A stretch of 64,000 bases of DNA from Candidatus Micrarchaeota archaeon (GTDB lineage Archaea; Micrarchaeota; Micrarchaeia; Micrarchaeales; Micrarchaeaceae). Location: NCBI GenBank assembly GCA_021810105.1, contig JAJZJM010000001.1, forward strand, positions 296,850-360,849, read 5' to 3'. The notes below the pieces were generated by a model. The model worked only from the letters and a program-made list of their open reading frames with translations, was not told where the DNA came from and did no database searches. Position numbers and translations under genes: made by a program. Positions 11,262-46,819 of this stretch are shown here, one piece after another. How positions within the stretch are numbered: position 1 is the stretch's first letter; the number at the start of each line of letters is the position of its first letter.

Positions 11262-11323
11262 ATTTGATTTTGTGAAGGCTGAAGACTGCCACCGACCTAA
11301 AAACAATAATAAATAGAGATTAA

Positions 11324-11710
11324 ATGACCCAAATAGAAAAGCATCCAAGCGCCGAGACGCGCGTTGTGCCTGATGAAAGAAGCCGCTCTTTAATGAGACT
11401 TGAGAGAGTGTTGCATGAAGCGGAAGGAGAGACGCCCAGGGCATTGGTGAGGATGCCTGATGATGCAGTTAAGGAGACTGAGAGAGTTAAAGAATTGAGG
11501 GGGGCGTTGGAGAGGTTGAGTGAGGATAATGAGAGGTATACAGTTGCCGTGAGGAGTAGGAATGTTAGTGTGGAGATATTGGAGAGGTTGATTAGGGATG
11601 AGGATGTAGGTGTTAGGAGTGGAGTGGGAAGGGATGAAAATCTAAATCCCAGTAAGAAGAAAAAGGAAAAGCTTCTGTCGAGAGCTTGGAGATATTTTAG
11701 AAGGAAGTAG
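11324..11710 (+). CDS. Short LRV/HEAT-like repeat protein (paralog 1: shared head, 1-2 repeats, basic tail)
   Basis: It shares the head motif LERVLHEAEGETPRALVRMPDDAVKETER and a repeat RNVSVEILERLIRDEDVGVRSGV with the downstream array. It ends in a K/R-rich tail (PSKKKKEKLLSRAWRYFRRK). Confidence 0.75.
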   Translation: MTQIEKHPSAETRVVPDERSRSLMRLERVLHEAEGETPRALVRMPDDAVKETERVKELRGALERLSEDNERYTVAVRSRNVSVEILERLIRDEDVGVRSGVGRDENLNPSKKKKEKLLSRAWRYFRRK

Positions 11711-11721
11711 AGGAGATATTG

Positions 11722-13323
11722 ATGAGTGATAAAAAGACTGTGATTAAGCGTGATGTTCCTCAGCACGCTAATCCAGAACCTTTATCATCTAAATTGTACG
11801 AAGCATGGACAGAGACGCTTAAAATTATGGGGAGTCCTCCACTTTTACTGCCGTGCTTCCAAACAGTAACAAGATCGCATACTTCAGAAATAGACATGAA
11901 AACGAAGCAGATATCTATAGACACAGGCTTCTTTGGAATGCTTCTCGGAAAGGGGCTAAGCGAGAAAGATGCCTTCCAGGCACTATGCATGCATGAGTTG
12001 GGCCACTATAGGTATCACCCTTACGATCTAGCCACCCTTCTGTTAGAATTGAATAGCCTAAAGTACAATGATGAAGGCAAATTCGGCGGACCAAACGCCA
12101 ATTCTATAAGGTTGTTATATGATGATTTCTGCGATAATCTGTGGCTGCTGCGTATGATTAAAGAGCCTAAGATAAACTTATTATACCGCACTATTGACCA
12201 GGATAATAAAATGCCTGCCATAGTGATAATGCGCGCATATCTTCAGTCTGTAAGCGGCGTAGATTTTGGTATTGAAGAGTCCAAACTTAGCGAGGAAATG
12301 CAGAAGAAGGTTGCTGCGCTAAGAAAAATCGATTTTTTCAGTAGGGAAGCGAACCTTGAAAATATTTCCAGATTCGCAAAGATAATGATGGATATCGCTG
12401 CAGAGGAAGAAGAGAATTTAGGAGGATGTGGCGGTATTGATATCAAAGACTTTGCTGAACAAGATGTAGAGCAAGCTATGCGTAAGATAGTAGACCAAGT
12501 GACAAAAGACGATTGGGAAGGTATCAAGAAATGGGTTGATGAGCAGAGCGGGAATATAGGTACGAAATTGAGAACCGATCGTGAAGAGAAAAAAATGAAA
12601 GCTTCTGTCGAATACTACAAGACAAAGGCATCGCTTTACCCGATAAGGATATTGGGAATGCGGTACGTAGTAGAGGGTACTTCAAAAGCAGGCATAGATA
12701 ATTTTAATACAGGAGATAGGATATCCAGCCTAAACCCATATAGAAGCTTTGGGATATTTATACCTGATTCAGGCATAACGAAGAAGAACGTGTATGCACC
12801 GTCCAAAAAATTCGTACCGAGCAAAAAAGTGCCGGATTCGATAATTGTGTTGGACTCTTCGGGCAGCATGCCAAACCCAATAACAGAGAATTCAAATGCC
12901 GTGCTAGGAGCCTTTGCTGTAGCAATGGCATACCTGAAAAACAAGGGCAACGTGGACGTGATAAATTTCTCTTCAGCGGCGAAGACCGTAAAGTATAGAG
13001 ATAGCGAGACAGTTTACAGGACACTGGTGGACTTTTTGGGGGGCGGCACAGACCCTCCTGTAAAGGAACTGACGGACCTGTTAAAGGAAAATAAAAAAGA
13101 TATCACTGTGATAACCGATGGCTTTGCCGGTGCAGATTCCAGCATGGTAAAACAGTTTATGCAGCTGCTAGATTCGGCAGGACAGACACATAGGGTGTCG
13201 TTAGTATATATAGGGAAAAATCCTCCGGAAGAGTTTACAAGTTATCGCAATATCAAGTTCCATGTTGTGACTAGGGAGACCGACATTGCTTCGATAGTAA
13301 TAGGCGATATCGAATGGCAATGA
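11722..13323 (+). CDS. VWA-domain protein with an N-terminal HExxH putative metallopeptidase module (DUF2201-like architecture)
   Basis: CMHELGHYRYHP contains an HExxH motif. The C-terminal VWA domain has a MIDAS motif (IIVLDSSGSMPNP, DxSxS) and ITVITDGFAG. An AGGAG sits ~8 nt upstream of the ATG at 11722. The last 10 nt overlap the first array gene. Confidence 0.75.
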   Translation: MSDKKTVIKRDVPQHANPEPLSSKLYEAWTETLKIMGSPPLLLPCFQTVTRSHTSEIDMKTKQISIDTGFFGMLLGKGLSEKDAFQALCMHELGHYRYHPYDLATLLLELNSLKYNDEGKFGGPNANSIRLLYDDFCDNLWLLRMIKEPKINLLYRTIDQDNKMPAIVIMRAYLQSVSGVDFGIEESKLSEEMQKKVAALRKIDFFSREANLENISRFAKIMMDIAAEEEENLGGCGGIDIKDFAEQDVEQAMRKIVDQVTKDDWEGIKKWVDEQSGNIGTKLRTDREEKKMKASVEYYKTKASLYPIRILGMRYVVEGTSKAGIDNFNTGDRISSLNPYRSFGIFIPDSGITKKNVYAPSKKFVPSKKVPDSIIVLDSSGSMPNPITENSNAVLGAFAVAMAYLKNKGNVDVINFSSAAKTVKYRDSETVYRTLVDFLGGGTDPPVKELTDLLKENKKDITVITDGFAGADSSMVKQFMQLLDSAGQTHRVSLVYIGKNPPEEFTSYRNIKFHVVTRETDIASIVIGDIEWQ

Positions 13324-14018
13324 AAGGGAAGCAAACTAAGCCTGAAATCGCTTTAAAGGGACTTAAGAGAGTGTTGCATGAAGCGGAAGGAGAGATACCC
13401 AGAGCATTGGTGAGGATGCCTGATGATGCAGTTAAGGAGACTGAGAGAATTGAGGAATCAATGAGAAGATTGGAGAGGTTGAGTTGGAGTGAGAAGTTTA
13501 CGATGGCGATAGACCCAAAAACAGACGGATATATGCTTGATGCGCTTAGTAGGGATGAGGATGCGTATGTTAGGAGTGGAGTGGCAGTGAGTGAGAATGT
13601 TAGTGTGGAGATATTGGAGAGGTTGAGTAGGGATGAGGATGCAGGTGTTAGAAGTGAGGTGGCGAGGAGTAGGAATGTTAGTGTGGAGATATTGGAGAGG
13701 TTAAGTAGGGATGAGGATGCGTATGTTAGGAGTTGGGTGGCAATGAATAGGAATATTAGTGTGGAGATATTGGAGAGGTTAAGTAGGGATGAGGATGCAG
13801 GTGTTAGAAGTGAGGTGGCGAGGAATAGGAATGTTAGTGTGGAGATATTGGAGAGGTTAAGTAGGGATGAGGATGCAGGTGTTAGGAGTGGAGTGGCAGG
13901 GAGTAGGAATGTTGGTGTGGAGATATTGGAGAGGTTGAAAAATGATTCTGACGAATATGTAAGGGATATGGCAATTAAGACTTTGGAAAAAATAAACAGA
14001 GGATCTGGAATAATGTGA
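13314..14018 (+). CDS. LRV/HEAT-like repeat protein, paralog 2 (head + 6 x 26-aa units, including the tail cap)
   Basis: The head is MAMKGKQTKPEIALKGLKRVLHEAEGEIPRALVRMPDDAVKETERIEESMRRLERLSW. Repeats follow NVSVEILERLSRDEDAGVRSEVARSR with a 78-nt period. The tail is ILERLKNDSDEYVRDMAIKTLEKINRGSGIM. Confidence 0.8.
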   Translation: MAMKGKQTKPEIALKGLKRVLHEAEGEIPRALVRMPDDAVKETERIEESMRRLERLSWSEKFTMAIDPKTDGYMLDALSRDEDAYVRSGVAVSENVSVEILERLSRDEDAGVRSEVARSRNVSVEILERLSRDEDAYVRSWVAMNRNISVEILERLSRDEDAGVRSEVARNRNVSVEILERLSRDEDAGVRSGVAGSRNVGVEILERLKNDSDEYVRDMAIKTLEKINRGSGIM

Positions 14019-14024
14019 TATCGA

Positions 14025-14729
14025 ATGGCAATGAAAGGGAAGCAAACTAAGCCTGAAATCGCTTTAAAGGGACTTAAGAGAGTGTTGCATGAAGCGGAAG
14101 GAGAGATACCCAGAGCATTGATGAGGATGCCTGATGATGCAGTTAAGGAGACTGAGAGAATTGAGGAATCAATGAGAAGATTGGAGAGGTCGAGTAGGAA
14201 TGAAAAGTTTACGATGGCCATAGACCCAAAAACAGACGGATATATGCTTGATATGCTTAGTAGGGATAAGGATGTAGTTGTTAGGTGTAATGTGGCGGGG
14301 AATAGGAATGTTAGTGTGGAGATATTGAAGAGGTTGAGTAGGGATAAGGATGTAGTTGTTAGGTGTAATGTGGCGAGGAGTGAGAATGTTAGTGTGGAGA
14401 TATTGGAGAAGTTGAGTAGGGATAAGGATGTAGTTGTTAGGTGTAATGTGGCGAGGAGTAGGAATGTTAGTGTGGAGATATTGGAGAAGTTGAGTAGGGA
14501 TAAGGATGTAAGTATCAGGTATAATGTGGCAATGAATTGGAATGTTAGTGTGGAGATATTGGAGAGGTTGAGTAGGGATAAGGATGTAGGTATCAGGTAT
14601 AATGTGGCAATGAATTGGAATGTTAGTGTGGAGATATTGGAGAGGTTGAAAAATGATTCTGACAAATATGTAAGAGATATGGCAATTAAGACTTTGGAAA
14701 AAATACAAGGAGAATCTGGAATAATGTGA
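14025..14729 (+). CDS. LRV/HEAT-like repeat protein, paralog 3 (6 units, SRDKDVVVRCNVA variant)
   Basis: The head is almost nucleotide-identical to paralog 2. The repeats carry K-for-E and VVVRCN / V[SG]IRYN substitutions. A 6-nt spacer (tatcga) follows the previous stop. Confidence 0.8.
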   Translation: MAMKGKQTKPEIALKGLKRVLHEAEGEIPRALMRMPDDAVKETERIEESMRRLERSSRNEKFTMAIDPKTDGYMLDMLSRDKDVVVRCNVAGNRNVSVEILKRLSRDKDVVVRCNVARSENVSVEILEKLSRDKDVVVRCNVARSRNVSVEILEKLSRDKDVSIRYNVAMNWNVSVEILERLSRDKDVGIRYNVAMNWNVSVEILERLKNDSDKYVRDMAIKTLEKIQGESGIM

Positions 14730-14735
14730 TATTGA

Positions 14736-15206
14736 ATGGCAGTGAAAAGGAAGCAAACTAGGCCTGAAATCGCTTTAAGGAGACTTGAGAGAGTGTTGCA
14801 TGAAGCGGAAGGAGAGATGCCCAGAGCATTGGTGAGGATGCCTGATGATGCAGTTAAGGAGACTGAGAGAATTGAGGAATCAATGAGAAGATTGGAGAGG
14901 CTGAGTTGGCGTGAGAAGTTTACGATGGCGATAGACCCAAAAACAGACAGATATATGCTTGATGCGCTTAGTAGGGATGAGGATGCGTATGTTAGGTTTT
15001 ATGTGATAGGGAATGAGAATGTTAGTGTGGAGATGTTGGAGAGGTTGAGTGAGGATAAAAAGGTACTTGTTAGGAGTGGAGTGGTGGGGAGTAGGAATGT
15101 TAGTGTGGAGATATTGGAGAGGTTGAAAAATGATTCTGACAAATATGTAAGAGATATGGCAATTAAGACTTTGGAAAAAATAAACAGAGGATCTGGAATA
15201 ATGTGA
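14736..15206 (+). CDS. LRV/HEAT-like repeat protein, paralog 4 (3 units)
   Basis: It has the MAVKRKQTRPEIALRRLERV head and the same tail. It is exactly 78 aa (3 x 26) shorter than paralogs 2 and 3. Confidence 0.8.
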   Translation: MAVKRKQTRPEIALRRLERVLHEAEGEMPRALVRMPDDAVKETERIEESMRRLERLSWREKFTMAIDPKTDRYMLDALSRDEDAYVRFYVIGNENVSVEMLERLSEDKKVLVRSGVVGSRNVSVEILERLKNDSDKYVRDMAIKTLEKINRGSGIM

Positions 15207-15212
15207 TATTGA

Positions 15213-15683
15213 ATGGCAGTGAAAAGGAAGCAAACTAGGTCTGAAATCGCTTTAAGGAGACTTGAGAGAGTGTTGCATGAAGCGGAAGGAGAGATACCCA
15301 GAGCATTGGTGAGGATGCCTGATGATGCAGTTAAGGAGACTGAGAGAATTAAGAAATTGCGGATAAAATCGGAGAGGTTGAGTATGGATGATGAGCTTGA
15401 GATGGCTCTGGACCCGAAAACAGATAAGGATATCCTTGATGTGCTTAGTAGGAATAAGGATGTGAGTATTAGGTGTGGGGTGGCAAGGAGTGAGAATGTT
15501 AGTGCGGAGACATTGGAGAGGTTGAGTAGGGATAAGAATGCGTATGTTAGGAGTTGGGTGGCAAGGAATAGGAATGTTAGTGTGGAGATATTGGAGAGGT
15601 TGAAAAATGATTCTGACAAATATGTAAGAGATATGGCAATTAAGACTTTGGAAAAAATAAACAGAGGATCTGGAATAATGTGA
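15213..15683 (+). CDS. LRV/HEAT-like repeat protein, paralog 5 (3 units, divergent linker)
   Basis: Head and tail match the family. The linker differs (IKKLRIKSERLSMDDELEMALDPKTDKDILDVL). Confidence 0.8.
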   Translation: MAVKRKQTRSEIALRRLERVLHEAEGEIPRALVRMPDDAVKETERIKKLRIKSERLSMDDELEMALDPKTDKDILDVLSRNKDVSIRCGVARSENVSAETLERLSRDKNAYVRSWVARNRNVSVEILERLKNDSDKYVRDMAIKTLEKINRGSGIM

Positions 15684-15689
15684 TATCGA

Positions 15690-16472
15690 ATGGCAGTGAA
15701 AAGGAAGCAAACTAGGCCTGAAATCGCTTTAAGGAGACTTGAGAGAGTGTTGCATGAAGCGGAAGGAGAGATGCCCAGAGCATTGGTGAGGATGCCTGAT
15801 GATGCAGTTAAGGAGACTGAGAGAATTGAGGAATCAATGAGAAGATTGGAGAGGCTGAGTTGGCGTGAGAAGTTTACGATGGCGAGAGACCCAAAAACAG
15901 ACGGATATATGCTTGATATGCTTAGTAGGGATAAGGATGTAGTTGTTAGGTGTAATGTGGCGAGGAATAGGAATGTTAGTGTGGAGATATTGGAGAGGTT
16001 GAGTAGAGATAAGGATGCGGGTGTTAGGTATAATGTGGCGGGGAGTAGGAATGTTAGTGTGGAGATATTGGAGAGGTTGAGTAGGGATGAGGATGCGAGT
16101 GTTAGGTATAATGTGGCAATGAATTGGAATGTTAGTGTGGAGATATTGGAGAGGTTGAGTAGAGATAAGGATGCGGGTGTTAGGTATAATGTGGCGGGGA
16201 GTAGGAATGTTAGTGTGGAGATATTGGAGAGGTTGAGTAGGGATAAGGATGTACTTGTTAGGAGTGGAGTGGCAGGGAATGAGAATGTTAGTTTGGAGAT
16301 ATTGGAGAGGTTGAGTAGAGATAAGGATGCGGGTGTTAGGTATAATGTGGCGGGGAGTAGGAATGCTAGTGTGGAGATATTGGAGAGGTTGAAAAATGAT
16401 TCTGACAAATATGTAAGAGATATGGCAATTAAGACTTTGGAAAAAATAAACAGAGGATCTGAAATAATGTGA
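15690..16472 (+). CDS. LRV/HEAT-like repeat protein, paralog 6 (7 units)
   Basis: At 260 aa it equals 234 plus one 26-aa unit. Its repeats are SRDKDAGVRYNVAGSR, SRDEDASVRYNVAMNW and similar variants. Confidence 0.8.
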   Translation: MAVKRKQTRPEIALRRLERVLHEAEGEMPRALVRMPDDAVKETERIEESMRRLERLSWREKFTMARDPKTDGYMLDMLSRDKDVVVRCNVARNRNVSVEILERLSRDKDAGVRYNVAGSRNVSVEILERLSRDEDASVRYNVAMNWNVSVEILERLSRDKDAGVRYNVAGSRNVSVEILERLSRDKDVLVRSGVAGNENVSLEILERLSRDKDAGVRYNVAGSRNASVEILERLKNDSDKYVRDMAIKTLEKINRGSEIM

Positions 16473-16478
16473 TATCGA

Positions 16479-17177
16479 ATGGCAGTGAAAAGGAAGCAAA
16501 ATAGGCCTGAAATCGCTTTAAGGAGACTTGAGAGAGTGTTGCATGAAGCGGAAGGAGAGATACCCAGAGCATTGGTGAGGATGCCTGATGATGCAGTTAA
16601 GGAGACTGAGAGAATTGAGGAATCAATGAGAAGATTGGAGAGGTTGAGTTGGAGTGAGAAGTTTACGATGGCGATAGACCCAAAAACAGACGGATATATG
16701 CTTGATATTCTTAGTAGGGATGAGGATGTAGGTGTTAGAAGTGAGGTGGCGAGGAATAGGAATGTTAGTGTGGAGATATTGGAGAGGTTAAGTAGGGATG
16801 AGGATGCAGGTGTTAGGAGTGGGGTGGTGGGAAATAGGAATATTAGTGTGGAGATATTGGAGAGGTTAAGTAGGGATGAGGATGCAGGTGTTAGGAGTGG
16901 GGTGGTAGGGAATGAGAATGTTAGTGTGGAGATGTTGGAGAGGTTGAGTAGAGATAAGGATGCGTATGTTAGGAGAGAGGTTGCATGGAATAGGAATGTT
17001 AGTGTGGAGATATTGGAGAGGTTGAGTAGGGATGAGGATGCGGGTGTTAGGAGAGAGGTGGCAAGGAGTGAGAATGTTAGTGTAGAAATATTGGAGAGGT
17101 TGAAAAATGATTCTGACAAATATGTAAGAAATATTGCAATTAAGACCCTGAAGAAGTTAAAAAGATCTAATTGCTGA
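16479..17177 (+). CDS. LRV/HEAT-like repeat protein, paralog 7 (6 units, divergent last residues)
   Basis: It shares the family head. Its repeats are SRDEDAGVRSGVVGN[RE] and VRREVA[WR]. The tail ends in ...IAIKTLKKLKRSNC rather than ...EKINRGSGIM, which marks the end of the array. Confidence 0.8.
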   Translation: MAVKRKQNRPEIALRRLERVLHEAEGEIPRALVRMPDDAVKETERIEESMRRLERLSWSEKFTMAIDPKTDGYMLDILSRDEDVGVRSEVARNRNVSVEILERLSRDEDAGVRSGVVGNRNISVEILERLSRDEDAGVRSGVVGNENVSVEMLERLSRDKDAYVRREVAWNRNVSVEILERLSRDEDAGVRREVARSENVSVEILERLKNDSDKYVRNIAIKTLKKLKRSNC

Positions 17178-37532: not shown

Positions 37533-37919
37533 TTGAAGATATCGATATTGCAGATAATTTTAGTGATAGGAATAATCATATCAGTCTACCTCGCGTATGT
37601 GCATTATAATCCTGGAGCACTGGTGTGTCCCACGGCGGGATTGATTAATTGTCAGGATGTGATTACCAGCTCCTATTCTGTAATACTTGGAGTGCCTTTG
37701 GCCATATATGCGGTAATATGGTTCGTAATTGCGCTTATTCTATCTATGTCTAAAATGAGAACAGTTACAGAATTATGGTTTCTTATAGGGATTGGAGGAA
37801 TCATCTATTCCTTATTTTCAATGTATATGGTAGGGAGAATTTGCGAGTTCTGCTCTGCGTTGGATGTAATAATAGTTGCATCGATAGCGCTTCTTTTTAA
37901 AGGACAAGGGTTAAAATAA
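37533..37919 (+). CDS. Vitamin K epoxide reductase (VKOR) family membrane protein
   Basis: It has four TM helices. The loop carries a cysteine pair (VCPTAGLINCQDVITSSYS) and the active-site CxxC is CEFC. The start is TTG. Confidence 0.7.
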   Translation: MKISILQIILVIGIIISVYLAYVHYNPGALVCPTAGLINCQDVITSSYSVILGVPLAIYAVIWFVIALILSMSKMRTVTELWFLIGIGGIIYSLFSMYMVGRICEFCSALDVIIVASIALLFKGQGLK

Positions 37920-37940: not shown

Positions 37941-38014
37941 GGGCCCATAGCTCAGCCTGGTAGAGCGGCTGGCTCTTAACCAGTAGGTCGGGGGTCCAAA
38001 TCCCCCTGGGCCCG
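37941..38014 (+). tRNA. tRNA-Lys (anticodon CUU)
   Basis: GGGCCCA-TA-GCTC-AGCCTGGTA-GAGC-G-GCTGG-CTCTTAA-CCAGT-AGGTC-GGGGG-TCCAAAT-CCCCC-TGGGCCC-G folds into a complete cloverleaf. Confidence 0.9.
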
Positions 38015-38132
38015 CCTTAATTTTAAATTAACGGCATTTTTCTTCATAGGACATGCTTGGATGCCTTTTCGAATTTGTGTTTATGGAAAGAGTTTTATTG
38101 GTAAATATAGACAATAAGACATTACAAGGTGC

Positions 38133-39839
38133 TTGCTGTTGGTAAACATTAATAGGATTTTTGTATTGTCCTTTGCATTTGCCCTGATTTTTGCTTCTGG
38201 AGTAAGCATGGCTAGTTCTTCTGGCATAGTATATGCAAGCGTCACCGTAGTGCAGCCTGCCAATGTGACAATTGCAAATTTTTCAACATCTTCAATTTTG
38301 ACAGCCGGCACACCTGTACCGCTATATGCCAAGGTGCAGAATGCAGGAGGATTGTCCGCTTCTAATATTACCTTTAATGTCTCCATAACAGGGCCTTCAA
38401 TCACCAATATAACATATAATCTAGGTACGCTCACACCAAGCCAAAGCAAGAACTTGACAACACAAGTAAGTGGTGGTGCACCATTGTCTGGAGCTTATAC
38501 TGTTAATGCGTTTATTAGCTATTATGTCAATGGTGTTCATCACATCTCCGCTTCCAAATATGCACAGTTTAATGCCTCAGTTCCAAACCCGCCTTCTCCA
38601 GGGCCCGGGCCTGGCACAAGCAAGCAATCATACACACCTACACCAAAGATACCAGGAATAAACATAAACTCACTCCCGGTAGCGCTGTCTGCAGCGGTAG
38701 GAGGCCAATTATCTAGCATAATAAATTTACAGTCAATTTCAAACGTAACAGAAATAATAAATTTTACAGTTAGCAATAATTATACCGGAATAGTTACGCT
38801 TTCTCCAAGCAGTATTACCCTGCTTCCTGGGCAGAAAGGCAGCGTTGTAGCCAGCATAAGAGCCACATCTTCAATGCTTCCGGGAACCTATGTTATACCT
38901 ATCACAATGAATGCCTCTTTTGTGGGAGATGCGCCTGCAAGCCAAACAGCATACGTAACATTTACCATATACAGCAATCTCAAAAATGGATTGCAGGTGC
39001 TTGGACAGTCTTATATGGTTAATAACCTTACAGAACTGAGCGGTGCTGTATCAATTAGTAATAATGGCGAGTCTACAATAACAAATGGCACTCTTACAAC
39101 AATGTTGCCTCTTTCGATTGCTGCAAACCTTACAGAGATTAGCGCGTATGGACTACCCAACAATATAACCAGAAGCACAGACGGATATGCTGTAAATTGG
39201 AATGTACAGAAGATACTTCCCGGGCAGATATTGTATGCCTATTACACGATACACAACCCTAGCTCTGCCTCATTGGCATATTATCCACAAAATATATTCA
39301 CGTTACCTACCCCTCCTGTATCCAGCCAGGTGCTTAAAATCATCAGCATTTCTGCACCTACATTTTATTCTAACTCTACGAACAAAATAAATGCCACTGT
39401 TTTCTATGCTGGCAGTACATACCAACCAGTATCATTTTCGCTATCTGGCCCTCCTGGCGTGACAATATACAATTCTACACAGGTGGTTTATACCTCTCCG
39501 AATAGATTGCTTAACAGAAGTTTTAGCATATTTGTTGGCAATTACACTGGAACTTTACTTTTCTACCTTACATTGAGCGCAGGAGGGCTAAATAATACCG
39601 AGACTTTGCCTGCAGTTGTGTTAACCAAGATACCCATAGTATCTCCGCCCTCCCAGAAGCCGTTTTTGATTAGCTTTCAGACATTATTAGGGATCCTGGA
39701 GGCTTTTGCAGGGGCTGCTTTGATATTTATTATTTTGCTCGTAATAATAAACATAAAGAAGCGTCAGAGAGCGCCTGAAAGCAAAACAAGAGAACTGGTG
39801 AAAATGGCGAAGAGAATAAGAGGAGAGATAGATGAATAA
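38133..39839 (+). CDS. Type I membrane-anchored surface protein with multiple CARDB/Ig-like beta domains
   Basis: The signal is IFVLSFAFALIFASGVSMA. A CARDB-like segment reads TAGTPVPLYAKVQNAGGLSASNITFNVSITGP. A Pro-rich linker (PNPPSPGPGPG) follows. The C-terminal TM is AGAALIFIILLVIINI followed by KKRQR. The protein is dense in sequons. Confidence 0.7.
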   Translation: MLLVNINRIFVLSFAFALIFASGVSMASSSGIVYASVTVVQPANVTIANFSTSSILTAGTPVPLYAKVQNAGGLSASNITFNVSITGPSITNITYNLGTLTPSQSKNLTTQVSGGAPLSGAYTVNAFISYYVNGVHHISASKYAQFNASVPNPPSPGPGPGTSKQSYTPTPKIPGININSLPVALSAAVGGQLSSIINLQSISNVTEIINFTVSNNYTGIVTLSPSSITLLPGQKGSVVASIRATSSMLPGTYVIPITMNASFVGDAPASQTAYVTFTIYSNLKNGLQVLGQSYMVNNLTELSGAVSISNNGESTITNGTLTTMLPLSIAANLTEISAYGLPNNITRSTDGYAVNWNVQKILPGQILYAYYTIHNPSSASLAYYPQNIFTLPTPPVSSQVLKIISISAPTFYSNSTNKINATVFYAGSTYQPVSFSLSGPPGVTIYNSTQVVYTSPNRLLNRSFSIFVGNYTGTLLFYLTLSAGGLNNTETLPAVVLTKIPIVSPPSQKPFLISFQTLLGILEAFAGAALIFIILLVIINIKKRQRAPESKTRELVKMAKRIRGEIDE

Positions 39840-40623
39840 GCCATACATAATACGTGTGTCTTCTCAAAAAGGAGGTGTTGGTAAGACTGCAATATCTGTA
39901 AACTTTGCATCCGCATTAAGAAGTCTTGGCTATAGAACCTTGGTAATAGATTTTGATTTTACAAACCCTAGCATTGGATTTCATTTGGGGCTTGAAGGCA
40001 TAAATTCTGGTACAAAAGCGGCTATGGAAAAGAAGACCGCTCTTAGCAGCGTTGTTTCAATACATGAGCCTACAGGCATGCATGTAATAGCTGGAGAGGT
40101 AAAAGGGTGGGATGTACTTCCTGATAAAAGCGTATTGTCCTCTTTTGTTAACGGGCTAAAGAAGACAAATTACAACTTTATCATAGTTGATACCGCCCCA
40201 GGATTTGAACCTGAGGCAGAGCTTAACTATTTTGACGAGGGGTTGATAATAACAACTCCTGACGTACCTTCATGTGCTAGTGCGGTAAGGCTTTCCCATA
40301 AATACAATAGATCCAAGCTAAGGCATTCTCTTATTGTAAATAAGATAAGGAATACCAGATACGAGCTTAGTTTTGATGATATAATGGACATGTATGGAGG
40401 AGACTATGCATCACAACTGCCTGAAGATGATGCCGTTCCTGAAGGGATTGCAGCGCACATACCAGCATATAATCTTAAACCTAGATCAAGATTCTCACGA
40501 AGCATATTCTCACTTGTTAAAAGGCATGTTTCAGCGATTGATACAGACGAACCTCCAATTGCTATGCGTAAGAAAGGACTATGGCACAGGTTTTCAACCA
40601 AATTTCCTTCAAGAAAACGCTAA
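39832..40623 (+). CDS. MinD/ParA-family P-loop ATPase
   Basis: It has a deviant Walker A (VSSQKGGVGKTAISVNFA) and a Walker B (FIIVDTAPG). It overlaps the upstream surface-protein gene by 8 nt. Confidence 0.8.
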   Translation: MNKPYIIRVSSQKGGVGKTAISVNFASALRSLGYRTLVIDFDFTNPSIGFHLGLEGINSGTKAAMEKKTALSSVVSIHEPTGMHVIAGEVKGWDVLPDKSVLSSFVNGLKKTNYNFIIVDTAPGFEPEAELNYFDEGLIITTPDVPSCASAVRLSHKYNRSKLRHSLIVNKIRNTRYELSFDDIMDMYGGDYASQLPEDDAVPEGIAAHIPAYNLKPRSRFSRSIFSLVKRHVSAIDTDEPPIAMRKKGLWHRFSTKFPSRKR

Positions 40624-40665
40624 ATATTTGACTGTAGAACTATTTGCAGCCAATCAGTGAAACAT

Positions 40666-43600
40666 ATGAAACAAGTTTATTTGAACTTATTATTTTTAGT
40701 CTTAGCCATGTTTATAACCGCGCATGCCGTTATGGTTCCTAATGTTTTGTTTCAGAGTCAGAGTAATCCACAAAACAGCATAACAAGCACCATTAGTTCA
40801 ACATCTACAGGAAATGTGACGGCATCATCTGCACAGTCCTCTAATGCCCCTAATAGTACATCCACCATTCTAACCACAAGCGTGTCAACAACCATACCTT
40901 ATGTTTCAACAATGTTCAGAGAATCAGGATTGCCTGAAGGCGTGGCATGGTCTGTCCTATATAATGGAAGGGGCTCTGTTTCCATATCTCCCAATAGCAC
41001 TTCATCTTCAACTCCTCCAGGTAACTATACTTTCATAGTATCTTATCCTACAAGCAATGGAATAACCTATATACCGAATCCATCTAACGGGACCTTAACG
41101 GCAGGAGGTTTATTGACGATAAATTTTACTCAGAATGTAACATTGCCGCAGCAAAAGACAACTTTTCAGGAACTTGGGTTGCCAAATAACAGCTCATGGA
41201 GTGTCACATTTAATGGGATTAATATAAGCGCAATCGCCCCAAACAGCATTGTTTTCTCAACATCGCCTGGCAACTACACATATACGATAGGGAATGTGTC
41301 GTTTGGAGGATTAACTTATCTGCCAAAAACGCAATCAGGGGTACTAGAAGCGGGCGGCAGCCCCATTGTTAATTTTTCCGCCAGTTATTCAGAATCCATT
41401 CCTAGTGCATCGACTTCGCTCCCAGCAAGCAATCTTGGATTAATAACAACACTCAGAACCAGCCTTCCTAACGGGGCTCTGTTTATATCTAATGAGAGTC
41501 CAATTGCACAAGGCGAAAATGGAACTTCAGTAAATGTAATTGCTCCAGTATATTTGAGTTTCCAGAACATGAGCAATATTACTGCCATTAATTCAAGTCA
41601 ATTAGAAAGTGTCAGATCGCAAGTGAATAAATTTTATAGTGGAGGCTTGCGCTCTGCAGGCATTTCGGCTTTATCAGTGAAAAACAGTTACTCTGGAATG
41701 TATGTTTTTAATGAAAATATTTCAGCACAGTACGGCAGCATATCGCAATCAAACAACTACGTGCCAGCTGGAAGAACGCTTCATTATATAGCATATAACA
41801 CTTATGGAATAATCACTTATTACAACGTAAGCGTACACAGAACAAGACCAACTCTTAAAATAAGCGTAAACGGAGCCATAGCCAAAAACCCTAATACCAC
41901 TTCGGTAATACACATACCAATACTGAACGGGCAGAGCGATTACAACATTTCTGTAGCTCTTGATAGTGTTTTGGCAGGTAGAAATCAGGCAAATTTTACA
42001 TATAAAATAAATTTTTCCAATGGTACAATAATAAACAGAACTTTGAATGCCAACTACGTGAACTATTCTGAGACATTCACTCTTCCAGCAGACCAGAATG
42101 CAACAATAACATTTGAGACTGGAGGAAATGCGAATTACACTCCTGTAGATCCAACCGTAGTAATAGTGCCTGCAGCGATATCATATTACTTGCCGATTAC
42201 ATTGACTAATTCACAAACAGTAGCTACCCCTGCACCATTTCAGGAAGAGGTTTCTGTAAATAGTCTGGATTACAGTTCATACGAAGCAAATAACCTAGAT
42301 AATATAGAGTTTTTCTATGCGGCTGGCAATATAATATCAAGTTGGATGGAGGGCAGCGTTAGCAATACATTGCTAAATAACCCGAAAAATTCTTCGTTGT
42401 TACATACATCAACTAATACCACCTATTGGCTTAACATATCAAAAGGGATACCAGCAAGCAATTCTATCACAGTATATATGGGTTTTGCCCCAGTATCAGT
42501 AAGCCTTTTGAATAATATCAATGTCGGAGAGAGCCCTCAGATAAGCAGTATTTATGGGCAGTATGATGATGGAACAAACGTATTTGATTATTATAATGTT
42601 AATCCAACTTCGACTTCAGGGTGGACCTTGGCGGGAATTGCAGGCCGTACAGGTTCCGCCCCTTCTGGAAATCATTTTATCACTACAAATGCATTATATG
42701 CGAATTCGGCTAATGGAGATTATCTTTACACATCCATACTGGATCTGACAACAAACGTGGTGATAACTTATGATGTATACACAACAGGTTTGGGAGACTT
42801 CTTTTTCCTGACAAACTCTGCCGGAAAAGGACAGATGACAAGGCTTGACGGGAGAGGAGGCGCAGATTACTCTGGATTAGCAACAACTTCTACATGGAAG
42901 AGCTGGGCTGCACCTTCTTCGGGGCTCTCCGAGACTACAAAAGTATGGTACAAATATGATACTGTAGTTTCTGGAACATCAGCTTATTCTTATATAGGAA
43001 ACATGTCGGATTCTTTGTCCACATATGGCAAACAGACATCCTCAACCGCATTTACGGTTGTAGATGATGGAAATTATTTGGGGCTTGTTGGAGATGGACT
43101 AGGTTCGTCTTACATAACTTACTGGGATGGAATAATCATACGCGCGGAGCCCCCTGGAGGAGTGATGCCAGTAGCAGCTTTAGGAACGGTTGTGGCTTCC
43201 GATGCCCCGGTGTTGATTTTCCAGTCCAACCCTATCAGTTATGGAGTCAGCAATCTTATTACTTTAACTACCCAGAGAACGGGAGATAGTGTTGAGATAT
43301 TGAAGAATGGCAATGTTATCGCTGGACCTGCGGCAAACAGCGTTAGTTATAGTGTATGCGGGGCTTCGCCATCACTTTCTAGTTGCTGGTCTCCGGGTAG
43401 CTATGTAATAACAGGAAAGGATGTAAATAGCGGGGTAATTAGCAATGGAATACTTATCGTTAATAAAGGGACTCCTTCTTTGAAGCTAGTGTCAGCGAAT
43501 ATTGTTTTAAATACATTGAGTAGCACGCCGGTCAATTATAGCATATCAACGATTGGAAATCAATTGTCTGCAAACCTAATAATAAATAATAATTATATTT

Positions 43601-45090
43601 CCAGCACTTCATCCAGCAATACGTATTCGCTTGCAACCAGCATAGGAAATTACAAATTAAAAGAAACAACCGCTGGCAACAGCAATTATACTTCTTATAA
43701 TCTGACCAAATCCTTATGCATAGTGCAAAAACCGAGCTCTTTTCCTACAGGTTTGATATATTACGCCCCGGTGTGCATAATAAATAATCAATCCTCTTCG
43801 TCATCGGCACAGTTCCAGCAGATGATCAACATAAGCGAAGATGTATATTCTGGCTACCTATCCTATAATGGAGAATTCGCCAATTTTGAGATATTCAATG
43901 CAACTGGAAGTGTGCAGCCATCGTGGATAGAGAGCAACGATTCAGGAGTATTGACAACCTGGATAAAAATGCCGGGTATTATTGGCGCGAATGCAGTTTT
44001 TTCCCTTTATCTAGGATTTGCGCCAAACACATTAAACCTTCTTTCAAACAGCGGGACAAGCGGAATAGGAGAGATACCTACAGCAAGCGGGTCTTATGGA
44101 GAGTATGATGATGGTGCAAGCGTTTTTGAAAATTATTTCCCTGGAAATTCCTTATCGACATGGACAAACGCTGGCACTTCCGGGCAAACTTCTTCTGCAC
44201 CTTCAGGATCACCTTTTGGAACCAATGCTTTCTATGCAAACGGGGCAAATGGAGATTATCTTTATACAACTGCAAATGGGCAGGCTGCAAATATGATAAT
44301 AGAGTATTATACAGACACAGCAAACCTTGATGATGTTTTCTTCCTGACAAACTCTTCAGGGGGAGGGCAGATAGGCAGAGTAGGAAATGGTGTAGGCTGG
44401 TATGGAATCGCGTCTTCAAGCTCATGGACTAGCTGGACCGCCCCTCCAGATAATGGTCAGTGGTCGAATAAATGGCTGCTGATTTCTATAGTATCTATAA
44501 ACGGAACTGCAACTATGTACCTTTCACCTAATGCGGGCAACTATGGGAGTGAGATTGGCCAAAATGCTTCAAATAGCTATTCTGTAGCGAATAATGGAGA
44601 TTATCTAGGTTTTGTTGGAGATGCAGCTGGTGGCACCACAACGCAATATTTGAATGGAATGATAATAAGGCAAAGGCCGCCTAACGGGATAATGCCTTCA
44701 TCGGTATTTGGAAGCCCTACATCTATCCAATCGACATGCTCAGTCTCCATATCTCCAGCAACAATAAATTTTGGGTCTTTAAATCCTGGCTCTTCTTTTG
44801 ATACAAACCAGGTTGTAACAGACTATAATAATGGTACAGTTTCTGCAAATATGCTGGTATATGCAGGAAATTGGATTAATGGTGCTGTTAACTTCGGATT
44901 ATCTAAAACCTTATGGAACCCAACATCTCTCTCATCTTATACTGGAAATGCAATGACTACTGCGCCAACTTTAGCCAATATAATAATACCTGCATCAGGC
45001 TCGAACAGCATATATTTTGGCTTGTCCGTTCCTCCTGGCCAGAGTGCAGGCTCTTACTCTCAAACCATAACCATAGAAAATGAATGTTGA
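40666..45090 (+). CDS. Giant secreted surface protein (~1,475 aa): 2 x ~75-aa modules, 2 x ~320-aa DUF2341 + LamG-like units, C-terminal Cys-bounded domain
   Basis: The signal is MKQVYLNLLFLVLAMFITAHA. Internal duplications were seen directly (see findings). No C-terminal TM anchor is present. N-x-S/T sequons are very dense. A GTG at 40657 is an alternative start. Confidence 0.75.
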   Translation: MKQVYLNLLFLVLAMFITAHAVMVPNVLFQSQSNPQNSITSTISSTSTGNVTASSAQSSNAPNSTSTILTTSVSTTIPYVSTMFRESGLPEGVAWSVLYNGRGSVSISPNSTSSSTPPGNYTFIVSYPTSNGITYIPNPSNGTLTAGGLLTINFTQNVTLPQQKTTFQELGLPNNSSWSVTFNGINISAIAPNSIVFSTSPGNYTYTIGNVSFGGLTYLPKTQSGVLEAGGSPIVNFSASYSESIPSASTSLPASNLGLITTLRTSLPNGALFISNESPIAQGENGTSVNVIAPVYLSFQNMSNITAINSSQLESVRSQVNKFYSGGLRSAGISALSVKNSYSGMYVFNENISAQYGSISQSNNYVPAGRTLHYIAYNTYGIITYYNVSVHRTRPTLKISVNGAIAKNPNTTSVIHIPILNGQSDYNISVALDSVLAGRNQANFTYKINFSNGTIINRTLNANYVNYSETFTLPADQNATITFETGGNANYTPVDPTVVIVPAAISYYLPITLTNSQTVATPAPFQEEVSVNSLDYSSYEANNLDNIEFFYAAGNIISSWMEGSVSNTLLNNPKNSSLLHTSTNTTYWLNISKGIPASNSITVYMGFAPVSVSLLNNINVGESPQISSIYGQYDDGTNVFDYYNVNPTSTSGWTLAGIAGRTGSAPSGNHFITTNALYANSANGDYLYTSILDLTTNVVITYDVYTTGLGDFFFLTNSAGKGQMTRLDGRGGADYSGLATTSTWKSWAAPSSGLSETTKVWYKYDTVVSGTSAYSYIGNMSDSLSTYGKQTSSTAFTVVDDGNYLGLVGDGLGSSYITYWDGIIIRAEPPGGVMPVAALGTVVASDAPVLIFQSNPISYGVSNLITLTTQRTGDSVEILKNGNVIAGPAANSVSYSVCGASPSLSSCWSPGSYVITGKDVNSGVISNGILIVNKGTPSLKLVSANIVLNTLSSTPVNYSISTIGNQLSANLIINNNYISSTSSSNTYSLATSIGNYKLKETTAGNSNYTSYNLTKSLCIVQKPSSFPTGLIYYAPVCIINNQSSSSSAQFQQMINISEDVYSGYLSYNGEFANFEIFNATGSVQPSWIESNDSGVLTTWIKMPGIIGANAVFSLYLGFAPNTLNLLSNSGTSGIGEIPTASGSYGEYDDGASVFENYFPGNSLSTWTNAGTSGQTSSAPSGSPFGTNAFYANGANGDYLYTTANGQAANMIIEYYTDTANLDDVFFLTNSSGGGQIGRVGNGVGWYGIASSSSWTSWTAPPDNGQWSNKWLLISIVSINGTATMYLSPNAGNYGSEIGQNASNSYSVANNGDYLGFVGDAAGGTTTQYLNGMIIRQRPPNGIMPSSVFGSPTSIQSTCSVSISPATINFGSLNPGSSFDTNQVVTDYNNGTVSANMLVYAGNWINGAVNFGLSKTLWNPTSLSSYTGNAMTTAPTLANIIIPASGSNSIYFGLSVPPGQSAGSYSQTITIENEC

Positions 45091-45114
45091 TTACGAAGGT
45101 TAACTAAACATATA

Positions 45115-46110
45115 ATGGATGTTTTTAAACCTTTTCATACTAAACTATTTGGCGATTTTATTAAGACTGAAAGAATATATAGATTAATTAGCACATTTGC
45201 AGCTGCATATCTGGCTTTGTTCGCTGCAACTATCGGACTTACCCAATTTACATTTGCCGGAACAGCATCAAATACAGTAGTTGCTTCGGTATCAATACCT
45301 AGCTCGTGCTTTATAAGTGGTGCAAATTCGATAAACCTGGGTAACAGCCTTCAGCCTGATACAAACTACCCTGCAAGCACCTCTTTTACAGTGAATGACC
45401 CTGGAGGAAATGCTGCATCTAACATATTAATTGCAGCTTCAGGCAACTGGATGCTTGGATCAAACAGCATATATTTTGGCAATGTTATATGGAGCAATAC
45501 GTTAAATTCTGCAACAGGTACAGGATTGACCAATACATTAGCAAATACGCTTATACAGATACCGGCTCCGTCTAGCGGAACTCCAACAACAAACAGTAAT
45601 GTTTATCTTGGGATACAGATCCCTGCTGGCCAAGCGCCAGGAGTATATACATCTAATATACTTTTCCAGAATTCATGCTACCCATCAAACTCTGTCACAT
45701 TGACAGTCCCTACAACAGCAAACGTAGTTCCGTTCTGCTACATATCCCTTAGCACAAACACAATAAACTTTGGCAGTATTGCGCCAGGGGCGAACGTACC
45801 TACTGCAAATACGGTTGTAGTAAGCAACCCTGGAGGAAATGCTGCAGCAAACGTGCTTGTTGACGGAACAAACTGGGCATCAAGCTCAAGTAGCTTTGGT
45901 GTTTCAAACACAATATGGGATGTCTCTTCGCAAACCACGTATAATGGGGTTGCATTGAGCAACTCATTAGCCATTACTGGGATAATATTGGCTGCTCCAA
46001 ATACAGTAAACACAATAACAAGCAATGACATATACTTCGGATTGGGAGTGCCTACCGCCACAGTTGCAGGAACATACACACAGAACATATTGATCGAGAA
46101 CTCCTGCTGA
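45115..46110 (+). CDS. Secreted protein made of two Cys-bounded ~120-aa beta domains (pilin/adhesin-like)
   Basis: The N-terminal hydrophobic segment is ISTFAAAYLALFAATIGL. Domain A (nt 45307-45678) and domain B (45736-46107) each start and end with Cys. Both are homologous to the last 117 aa of the giant protein. Confidence 0.7.
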   Translation: MDVFKPFHTKLFGDFIKTERIYRLISTFAAAYLALFAATIGLTQFTFAGTASNTVVASVSIPSSCFISGANSINLGNSLQPDTNYPASTSFTVNDPGGNAASNILIAASGNWMLGSNSIYFGNVIWSNTLNSATGTGLTNTLANTLIQIPAPSSGTPTTNSNVYLGIQIPAGQAPGVYTSNILFQNSCYPSNSVTLTVPTTANVVPFCYISLSTNTINFGSIAPGANVPTANTVVVSNPGGNAAANVLVDGTNWASSSSSFGVSNTIWDVSSQTTYNGVALSNSLAITGIILAAPNTVNTITSNDIYFGLGVPTATVAGTYTQNILIENSC

Positions 46111-46114
46111 TTTG

Positions 46115-46819
46115 ATGAAAAAGATAGCTGGTTTTGATTGTAAAAGCCTATTCGTATTATTCTTTGTGGGATTCGCTCTGCTATCTTTCATGATGATGTT
46201 ACCTGCGGCACAACTTGGTGAAGAGGCAGGGTCCCTCAACTTCAACGTGCAGGTAGGCCATAACCAGACCCTGCAAATGCATTTGGGGAACTCTGGAAAT
46301 GTGCCTGTAGGATTCAAGATACAACTTCCTTCAATAACAGAGCAAGATAATCAAAGTCCGCCCATTATAACGGCTAGCCCTTTATACGGAGTGGTGCAGC
46401 CATATTCTACTTTTCCTGTAAATATAACAGTTTTTATGCCGTTAAATGATACTCCTGGCGCAACAACATGGAGTGTAATAATATCGGCAGTGCAGTCGAA
46501 TAACGCATCAAACCCCGGAGGCGCTGTGATAGAGGAAGGAGTGGCCAAGATTGCATCCATAAGCGCAATTCTATCAACAACGAGCACTTCAACAGTGACC
46601 ACAACCGTATTGCAGAGGCTCGGCGCAACAGCCCCATTAGTACCCTCTTCGATGCTAGTCATAATAGTAGTAGTGATTGTAATTGTAGTGCTAAGTGCAG
46701 CCGCATTGGCGCTTTATATTAAATCGAAGAAAACCTCTAGAAATAGATCCAAGCACGCACGAAAGACTTCGGGAAGGGCGCGCAAAACAAAGAGCGCACA
46801 TTCCGTAAATCGGCGCTGA
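46115..46819 (+). CDS. Bitopic membrane protein with one beta-sandwich-like ectodomain, S/T linker, C-terminal TM and a strongly basic tail
   Basis: The N-terminal hydrophobic segment is LFVLFFVGFALLSFMMMLPA. The Ig-like pattern is LNFNVQVGHNQTLQMHLGNSGNVPVGFKIQLP...PYSTFPVNITVFMP. The TM is MLVIIVVVIVIVVLSAAALALYI and the tail is KSKKTSRNRSKHARKTSGRARKTKSAH. Confidence 0.65.
   Translation: MKKIAGFDCKSLFVLFFVGFALLSFMMMLPAAQLGEEAGSLNFNVQVGHNQTLQMHLGNSGNVPVGFKIQLPSITEQDNQSPPIITASPLYGVVQPYSTFPVNITVFMPLNDTPGATTWSVIISAVQSNNASNPGGAVIEEGVAKIASISAILSTTSTSTVTTTVLQRLGATAPLVPSSMLVIIVVVIVIVVLSAAALALYIKSKKTSRNRSKHARKTSGRARKTKSAHSVNRR

Follow-up and report, generated by a model that had tools for sequence, protein, structure and literature searches.

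A conserved five-gene locus of Micrarchaeota as a candidate for a membrane-anchored surface fibre built by beta-strand complementation

Here we describe a block of five genes, g1 to g5, found in a 64,000-nt stretch of a Candidatus Micrarchaeota archaeon genome (GCA_021810105.1, contig JAJZJM010000001.1, positions 296,850 to 360,849 of the forward strand), hereafter called the window and numbered from its first letter. We propose, as a reading that we hold to be about evenly poised between right and wrong, that this locus encodes a Sec-dependent surface fibre outside the type IV class, built by beta-strand complementation, anchored in the cytoplasmic membrane and carrying exchangeable adhesins at its tip. 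The proposal is carried by the distribution of two features, a terminal domain common to g3 and g4 and a donor-strand-like motif common to g4 and g1. Within it we infer strand exchange, the polarity of the fibre, a chaperone role of g5, a contact between g1 and g2 and attachment to a host. The genes, identified as open reading frames (ORFs) with lengths in amino acids (aa), are the following.

38133–39839, + strand: g1, ORF of 568 aa; proposed donor-only, membrane-anchored base subunit
39832–40623, + strand: g2, ORF of 263 aa; cytoplasmic MinD/ParA-type ATPase, overlapping g1 by 8 nt
40657–45090, + strand: g3, ORF of 1477 aa; giant secreted protein, proposed tip adhesin
45115–46110, + strand: g4, ORF of 331 aa; proposed shaft subunit, 24 nt after g3
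46112–46819, + strand: g5, ORF of 235 aa; membrane-tethered PapD-like protein, 1–4 nt after g4

An earlier note on this DNA had described five co-directional genes in tight spacing, which the ORFs bore out with distances of -8, 33–42, 24 and 1–4 nt, the g2–g3 gap being 33 nt if g3 starts at a GTG and 42 nt if it starts at the ATG preferred by gene callers. Topology was assigned by hydropathy, giving a signal peptide and a transmembrane segment (aa 521–541) for g1, a signal peptide with no other membrane segment for both g3 and g4, a signal peptide, a transmembrane segment (aa 181–203) and a basic tail for g5, and a soluble g2 in which hydrophobic segments are absent. The note's view of g3 as a secreted protein without an anchor was thereby upheld, as was that of g1 as an exported protein with a C-terminal membrane anchor, although the CARDB domains that it had also ascribed to g1 gave a match below threshold only (E 0.02). 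It had furthermore seen no type IV pilus features in the five genes and this held true, as the signal peptides of g1, g3, g4 and g5 are of Sec type and not class III, and no prepilin peptidase, PilB/FlaI ATPase or PilC/FlaJ platform was found among the five genes or their immediate neighbours; a type IV pilus or archaellum was thus rejected.

For comparative analyses we scanned one genome per GTDB species, called ORFs in every locus retrieved and searched these with g1 to g5. The scan gave 38 loci, all from Micrarchaeota, here referred to by number where needed. Two beta-sandwich domains of one kind, each about 123 aa long, make up the g4 protein, and g3 ends with one copy (aa 1355–1477, domain E 1.4e-47), with the parts located as listed here.

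45115–45261, + strand: g4 signal peptide
45262–45306, + strand: g4 N-terminal extension
45307–45678, + strand: g4 domain 1
45679–45735, + strand: g4 linker strand
45736–46107, + strand: g4 terminal domain 2, ending in Cys followed by the stop codon
44737–45087, + strand: g3 C-terminal g4-type (acceptor) domain, Cys1361–Cys1477, the last 117 aa, located with a domain hidden Markov model (HMM)

The final residue was Cys in all 68 proteins from the loci (50 of g4 type and 18 of g3 type), within an ending of the form ...xYxQxIxIxNxC-stop, and the first and last Cys of the terminal domain were invariant (42/42). Within domain 1 of two-domain g4 proteins the two Cys varied together in a lineage-specific manner, both being present in 10 of 42 and both replaced (by I/L and N) in the other 32. 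This covariation argues for a disulfide that links the start of the domain to its end and, at the level of sequence, indicates that a domain could do without it only if the same chain continues with a further strand. The earlier note was thus right that g4 shares its domain with the end of g3, but not that g3 ends in two copies. In an exhaustive profile search, 724 clusters at 50% identity carried the shared domain (E<=1e-3), and among the best 150 of these 724 it was found at the extreme C-terminus in all cases, with the carriers being either small proteins or large ones of 400–2200 aa. The shared domain is a new C-terminal family, comprising at least 724 sequence clusters and having no annotation.

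The second feature lies in front of the domain. All g4-type proteins begin with a signal peptide of Sec type, cleaved in most homologues at a predicted site resembling AxA, and followed by 14–17 residues with the consensus S-N-x-V-x-A-N-V-x-V-x-x-x that lead to the domain-initial Cys, and the interdomain linker of two-domain g4 proteins holds the same alternating-hydrophobic motif. Positions -10, -8, -6 and -4 from the Cys were hydrophobic in 80–100% of the g4 sequences; the same positions upstream of the g3 C-terminal domain were hydrophobic in 20–60%, with no alternating pattern, and in g3 the last strand of the preceding domain leads straight into the terminal-domain Cys. The motif was found again at the mature N-terminus of g1, by regular expression (regex) and alignment.

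38214–38258, + strand: g1 mature N-terminus SSSGIVYASVTVVQP, donor-strand-like motif

Within the window, SSSGIVYASVTVV of g1 compares with ASNTVVASVSI of g4, and further examples from g1 proteins are NSATISANVFVKC and QQGTVTANVLVSC. Since an HMM of the 11-residue motif was too short to part true from spurious matches, a strict positional regex was used instead ([VIL]xA[NSTG][VLAI]xV within residues 16–75). It matched g1 in 14 of 18 cases and g4 in 36 of 49, with no match in g3 (0/18), g5 (0/35) or g2 (0/19) and with 3 matches among 388 other ORFs, an enrichment in g1 over the other ORFs with a Fisher p=7e-20. The N-termini of g3 proteins are Ser/Thr-rich and the motif was not found there, while no g4-type domain was found in g1 (E>0.1). 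Motif and domain together thus define three classes, namely an acceptor-only protein (g3), a protein that is both donor and acceptor (g4) and a donor-only anchored protein (g1). A donor-strand fibre with a tip, a shaft and a base would require such a three-class distribution.

An AlphaFold2 (AF2) model of g4 had a predicted local distance difference test score (pLDDT) of 88 overall, with each of the two domains scoring above 95. In the linker, the motif was modelled as a confident 9-residue strand (aa 196–204), placed a 7-residue turn after the long last strand of domain 1; the N-terminal copy (aa 52–61) was modelled as coil with a pLDDT of about 70, and the last strand was shorter in domain 2 than in domain 1. 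Because a start-to-end disulfide would set the domain termini side by side, and because of this asymmetry in modelled strands, we suggest that the linker strand would complete domain 1 in cis and leave the terminal domain open. That the disulfide is dispensable in domain 1 and never in the terminal domain fits such an arrangement.

Searching this model with Foldseek, we found the chaperone-usher subunit CsuE as the best match in the PDB (E 1.6e-6, template modelling (TM) score 0.42–0.49), with further top matches to CfaE, the CfaE–CfaB and CfaB–CfaB donor-strand fusions, LpfD and PapG, and with GH123 N-terminal domains and antigen I/II domains ranking lower. For g5, AF2 gave one Ig domain (aa 35–153, pLDDT about 90) followed by a linker and a transmembrane helix, in line with the bitopic protein with one Ig-like ectodomain and a basic tail that had been described before.

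46112–46210, + strand: g5 signal peptide
46211–46573, + strand: g5 Ig domain
to 46651, + strand: g5 Ser/Thr linker
46652–46720, + strand: g5 transmembrane segment
46721–46816, + strand: g5 poly-basic tail

Each of the 50 Foldseek matches listed for g5 was a PapD-like, ASH or MSP domain, a chain of the ciliary central apparatus or a pilus chaperone, with E-values from 1e-7 to 1e-4, and the pilus chaperones included FaeE (5.8e-6), DraB and Caf1M. The Pfam matches of g5 were weak ones to ASH, MSP and Cep192, and by these matches the protein belongs in the PapD-like/ASH/MSP fold superfamily, which is marked by a seven-to-eight-stranded beta-sandwich. The earlier note had named unrelated folds as an outcome that would count against a unit; the folds predicted for g4 and g5 are instead related, and complementary in kind.

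The fibre would then be built as follows. Being the distal adhesin, g3 would present variable glycan- or host-binding modules and end in one C-terminal acceptor domain, having no donor strand of its own. In the shaft, the 14–17-residue N-terminal extension of g4, freed by signal-peptide cleavage, would slot as a strand into the terminal domain left open in the subunit before it, and in two-domain g4 proteins the linker motif would fill domain 1 of the same chain while domain 2 stays open for the next subunit. The base would be formed by g1, the donor motif of which lies at the mature N-terminus and the Ig-domain stalk and transmembrane helix of which would tie the fibre to the membrane; because it has the donor motif and lacks an acceptor domain, g1 would end the chain. 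The pseudo-periplasm of Ca. M. harzensis has been measured at 20–25 nm (bioRxiv 10.1101/2021.04.28.441871), for which the g1 stalk of about 480 aa could be roughly long enough. Since its linker keeps g5 near the membrane and its fold is one that takes up peptides or strands in extended form, it may act there as a chaperone or cap that binds the free donor strand, or covers the open groove, of newly exported subunits. Finally, g2 would be a membrane-binding positioning ATPase, probably acting via the g1 tail and setting where, when or how many fibres start rather than powering their assembly; we suggest such a positioning or licensing role because it is the pattern of FlhG, TadZ, BcsQ and archaeal MinD4. 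In the earlier note protein 3 had been suggested to tip a fibre of protein 4. The presence of the donor motif in g4 and g1, and not in g3 or g5, strengthens and sharpens that idea, in which co-assembly would still be presumed, and suggests for g1 the part of a base with a donor strand rather than that of a chaperone.

We next considered the g3 proteins, the internal features of which in the window are given here.

40729–40902, + strand: g3 Ser/Thr-rich stretch
40903–41430, + strand: two 85-aa beta repeats of g3, 44% identical (E 5e-19)
42154–43176 and 43729–44712, + strand: two 330-aa modules of g3, 37% identical (E 2e-52)

Orthologues of g3 range from 730 to 2205 aa and have variable bodies with always the same C-terminal domain, and large variable proteins sharing a terminal domain are what interchangeable tip proteins would look like. 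Window g3, searched whole and in six pieces, had no Pfam or NCBIfam match above threshold, and weak matches in the bodies of g3-type proteins were to DUF2341, Spherulin4 and the InlB B-repeat. Two g3-type proteins from other genomes (P0195 and P0281) carry the source annotation 'PGF-pre-PGF domain-containing protein'; window g3 itself has no NCBIfam match.

Counting N-glycosylation sequons and comparing with expectation, we found a depletion in g4-type proteins (0.26x expectation; 0 against 8.5 expected in window g4) and over the C-terminal 125 aa of g3 family proteins (9 found where 61 were expected, 0.15x). The body of g3 was at expectation (44 sequons in window g3) and enrichment was seen in g1 (2.1x; 21 sequons in window g1) and g5 (2.8x). 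The many sequons, together with secretion, Ser/Thr/Asn-rich composition, Ig-like domains and membrane anchors, would also suit an S-layer or pseudo-periplasmic structural set with its S-layer protein, anchor and accessory factors. We regard that as highly improbable, considering that g3 is too variable in length and content for a lattice protein and that the S-layer protein of Micrarchaeota is a different, highly abundant PF05123 protein, Micr_00292 (bioRxiv 10.1101/2021.04.28.441871). No PF05123 or other S-layer match from Pfam or NCBIfam was found in the locus, so that an S-layer identity was rejected and the locus is not the standard S-layer gene set that would have removed its novelty for the earlier note.

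Returning to the proposed base of the fibre, g1 has about four Ig-like domains in an ectodomain of about 480 residues, and g1 and its orthologues gave weak matches to CARDB, Cep192_D3, NEW3 and DUF11.

39693–39755, + strand: g1 transmembrane helix, by hydropathy
39756–39836, + strand: g1 cytoplasmic tail KKRQRAPESKTRELVKMAKRIRGEIDE, conserved in the family alignment

The tail follows the pattern RYxxERxxxLxxhRxxIKR across the family alignment and is the predicted g2-binding site. A profile–profile comparison of g5 with g1 gave a weak match (55% probability) that stemmed from the transmembrane segment and the tail, and hence no sign of a g5-type domain in g1. In most orthologues of g1 the protein exceeds window g1 by about 100 aa, owing to a small additional N-terminal domain with Cys (...VxANVxVxCPF...C...) that comes immediately after the donor-like motif; this domain was seen in L005, L009, L013–L016, L019, L022, L026, L028, L029, L033, L036 and L038, and is lacking in the g1 proteins of the window, L034 and L035.

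The description of g2 as a cytoplasmic ATPase with a deviant Walker A motif proved correct, with matches to CbiA (2e-15), AAA_31 (1e-13), ParA and MinD.

39862–39888, + strand: g2 deviant Walker A motif SQKGGVGKT
40567–40620, + strand: g2 C-terminal amphipathic basic tail

With a deviant Walker A of the form KGGxGK[ST] and a MinD-like fold, g2 belongs among the MinD/ParA (SIMIBI) proteins. It scored 89.2 bits against TIGR01969 minD_arch, under the cut-off of 201.75, and fell below every curated subfamily cut-off tried (MinD, BcsQ and CpaE models), and, judged by its sequence, g2 is a divergent, locus-specific MinD-like clade. The nearest solved structures were Pyrococcus MinD (1ion, 4e-18) and a 'Site-determining protein' (4rz2, 2e-13) that we take to be FlhG. 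The tail pattern [KR]xGFWxRFLxxFRR was conserved in 18 of 19 family members and resembles the membrane-targeting helix of MinD. A second g2-like MinD/ParA paralogue, without the amphipathic C-terminal tail, is found about 1.2 kb 3' of g5 in L013 (13509–14270, + strand).

A check of synteny, as the earlier note had proposed, showed that co-occurrence of the genes is conserved across Micrarchaeota. The order g1-g2-(g3)-g4(x1–3)-g5 is repeated in most of the 38 species-level loci, being complete in, for example, L005, L009, L013, L014, L026, L028, L034 and L035, and lacking g3 in L015, L016, L017, L020, L021, L022 and L029. The g4 part takes one of two forms, a single protein of about 325 aa with both domains or a tandem set of one to three proteins that have one domain each in about 170 aa, and g5 is directly 3' of the last g4-type gene in nearly every locus having both. 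Orthologues of g1 adjoin g2 in about 20 loci, the g1-g2 pair is inverted as a unit (g2-g1) and placed after g5 in L019, and L039, L040 and L043 have the g4-g5 pair in duplicate. From these recurring orders and variants we conclude that the block is a conserved unit with a g4-g5 core. A word-indexed search gave 115 g4 homologues, all of them unannotated, including ARM1_0672 of the cultivated strain ARM-1; those with labels were Micrarchaeia or Micrarchaeaceae, apart from a few labelled 'Marsarchaeota'. A cluster look-up of distant family members gave almost no names. To the extent visible here the locus is restricted to Micrarchaeota, and the guess of the earlier note that the organism is ARMAN-like agrees with its relatives all being Micrarchaeota. 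Peptidase_A4 and Laminin_G_3 proteins are encoded within or beside the locus in L007 (6479–9067, - strand) and L004 (12978–14954, + strand), the latter being the locus of ARM-1, where g5 is followed by a 658-aa LamG protein and an M16 peptidase.

Several results weigh against the fibre. The TM-scores of g4 to pilus subunits are just moderate at 0.42–0.49, and the rank of two-domain pilus subunits among its Foldseek matches may be inflated because both g4 domains align. Searches with phmmer and profiles of g3, g4 and the domain alignment gave nothing meaningful in the PDB, and the g4-type domain gave nothing above threshold in Pfam, SCPU being matched by 3 of 42 members at E>=0.003. The domain fold may also be complete as it stands, because the motif at its C-terminus, PxGxxAGxY..., is shared by Ig-like domains that are complete, such as the GH123 N-terminal one. 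There was no PapD_N or PapD_C match in g5, which has one domain where pilus chaperones have two. Within genomes, the donor motifs of g1 and g4 showed no significant co-variation (p=0.24–0.35) in a test that was underpowered. Finally, L033 and L038 are without g2, and the ARM-1 locus has g4-g5 without g1, g2 or g3 nearby. As to other family assignments of the domain, 40 of 42 members matched GH123_N_2 sub-threshold (best E 3e-7) and the g3 C-terminal domain matched DUF4402 sub-threshold (E 0.06); membership in the Fimbrial (PF00419) or SCPU (PF05229) pilin families was considered and rejected, with no Pfam match above threshold and no PDB profile match.

The main rival to the fibre is a surface display complex that forms no filament, in which the C-terminal domain would dock large secreted proteins to g5 and/or g1 and g4 would be an adaptor or spacer that does not polymerize, with the WxL/Csc systems of Firmicutes and cohesin–dockerin display as analogues. 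This alternative is viable, although on balance we think it unlikely. It would account for the domain tagging the C-terminus of large proteins that are heterogeneous and number in the hundreds, for g5 joining a membrane anchor to a fold that takes up peptides or strands (with a faint WxLIP_PGBD match, E 0.044), for g4-g5 being the conserved core that is duplicated as pairs, and for the ARM-1 locus holding these two genes only. It leaves unexplained, however, why the strand motif is found in g4 and g1, at the mature N-terminus and in the g4 linker, and never in g3, as well as why single-domain g4 paralogues come in tandem sets of one to three that resemble major and minor pilins, and it gives no role to a protein made solely of the docking domain.

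The absence of g1-g2 from the vicinity of g4-g5 in ARM-1, the missing g2 of L033 and L038 and the inversion of g1-g2 as a unit in L019 could also mean that two separate modules merely lie side by side. In that case g1-g2 would serve in positioning or division, as a membrane protein and the MinD-type ATPase that it works with, and g3-g4-g5 would be an unrelated adhesin set. MinD-family ATPases indeed have many cellular roles. We nevertheless consider this improbable, as the N-terminal motif of g4 is common to g1 (p=7e-20) and as g1-g2 stand directly 5' of g3 or g4 in about 20 independent loci, with reading frames that overlap or nearly abut.

For the fibre, the operon provides named candidates for tip, shaft, anchor, chaperone and positioning ATPase, and thereby candidate genes for how DPANN episymbionts recognise and hold their hosts and for how archaeal donor-strand filaments assemble and are anchored; these questions are directly testable because two members of the lineage that carries the locus have been cultivated. 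Microscopy has shown thin filaments, of unknown composition, on cells of ARM-1 and where Micrarchaeum meets its host (PMC11329633, PMC8975820), and the filament-bearing ARM-1 encodes g4-g5. With regard to expression or proteome evidence for the ARM-1 homologues, there was no identifiable entry in PMC11329633. A stronger version of the proposal, which we hold only tentatively and would lean against, is that the locus encodes the first chaperone-assisted donor-strand pilus in Archaea and a host-attachment organ of Micrarchaeota. Its architecture would be without bacterial counterpart, combining a tethered single-domain PapD-like chaperone, a transmembrane donor-only subunit as both terminator and anchor, a MinD-type ATPase that acts via the tail of this subunit on where or whether an ATP-independent polymer outside the cell is started, and swappable giant tip adhesins.

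The surroundings of the locus in the window comprise the following features.

37533–37919, + strand: VKOR-family membrane oxidoreductase (PF07884, found on an identical contig), outside the operon
37941–38014, + strand: tRNA gene (Rfam RF00005, 68.8 bits), upstream boundary of the operon
38015–38132, + strand: intergenic region with an A/T-rich, TATA-like stretch at about 38093–38112, read from the sequence

The region at 38015–38132 is a putative archaeal promoter, and at its other end the five-gene block is bounded by a gene for a tRNA-splicing endonuclease in convergent orientation. Metagenome contigs from three sources (ENA, JGI and Logan) carry the locus in identical form. The VKOR gene, which is separated from g1 by the tRNA gene, was found 5' of g1 in three lineages only, namely the window, L005/L031 (L005 3945–4331) and L035 (2088–2480), and is a possible accessory for disulfide formation in the Cys-bounded domains of g3 and g4. 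Of the lineages carrying VKOR, two or more (the window and L005) have also retained the additional pair of Cys in domain 1 of g4, which may point to a link with oxidative folding. Elsewhere in the window, a tRNA match over 141 nt (84–224, - strand) is probably an intron-containing tRNA gene. At 13314–17177 (+ strand) there are six tandem paralogous genes with 6 nt between neighbours, encoding a common N-terminus of about 75 aa followed by two to seven LRV/HEAT repeats of 23–24 aa (PF01816, E 1e-21 to 1e-25); 5' of them, at 9819–13323, lie a gene for a MoxR-like AAA protein and one for a VWA-domain protein with a HELGH motif, and the region has an extreme GC skew (0.37–0.63).

We also compared the locus with known systems. 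Full-text literature searches gave no prior description of this locus or of chaperone-usher, PapD-like or SCPU pili in DPANN or other archaea. Donor-strand filaments known from archaea are the Sulfolobus threads (Saci_0406), the bundling pili (AbpA/TasA-like), the Pyrodictium cannulae and the haloarchaeal Tat-fimbriae (PMC9715654, PMC9245690, PMC12518558, PMC11821415). They resemble the locus in being non-type-IV filaments of Sec- or Tat-exported, beta-rich subunits with an N-terminal donor strand, and in having minor or cap subunits encoded beside the major one. None of Saci_0406, AbpA/TasA, CanA or TafA was among the top 50 Foldseek PDB matches of g4 or in the PDB sequence searches, and no camelysin/TasA Pfam match was found in the locus or among members of the domain family. 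The subunits of Sulfolobus threads carry heavy glycosylation, in contrast to the sequon-depleted domain of g4. For bundling pili and threads the authors report no identified chaperone, usher, membrane anchor or ATPase, and the title of the cannulae paper calls them chaperone-free (same four sources).

The ATPase g2 has the deviant Walker A, MinD-like sequence and amphipathic C-terminal tail of the MinD/FlhG/ParA ATPases that position envelope machines and, like these, is encoded within an operon for a surface structure. Such ATPases include FlhG/FleN for flagella, TadZ/CpaE for Tad pili, BcsQ for cellulose synthase and archaeal MinD4 for archaella. The structure positioned by g2 would, however, be no type IV or flagellar machine but a Sec-dependent beta-strand fibre, and g2 would have for its partner a bitopic protein with Ig domains, contacted at the tail. 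Another similarity is to the WxL/Csc operons of Lactobacillales, in which small and large secreted proteins share a C-terminal domain and are accompanied by a C-terminally anchored DUF916/WxLIP protein. The locus shares this logic of its gene set, but it has no WxL domain match and the WxL/Csc context is bacterial peptidoglycan; to our knowledge, WxL/Csc systems include neither an ATPase nor a donor-strand motif.

The closest parallel in design is found in the chaperone-usher pili, in particular the archaic sigma (Csu) and alternate alpha (CFA/I) types. There, the tip adhesin has binding domains and one C-terminal pilin-type domain but no donor strand, as is proposed for g3, and the shaft subunits have an alternating-hydrophobic N-terminal extension and a beta-sandwich ending on its last strand, as g4 does. 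A PapD-like accessory protein, Sec export and the lack of an extracellular source of ATP are common to both. The locus differs in having no detectable sequence homology, no outer membrane and no usher, with no usher-like gene found in the window locus or related loci and no outer membrane seen in cultivated Micrarchaeota (bioRxiv 10.1101/2021.04.28.441871). It differs also in that its PapD-like protein is single-domain and membrane-tethered, in that its base would be a transmembrane donor-only subunit, in having a MinD-type ATPase in the operon and in that its subunits may be tandem two-domain proteins. If the proposal is true, the design principle of chaperone-usher pili arose, or persists, without an outer membrane.

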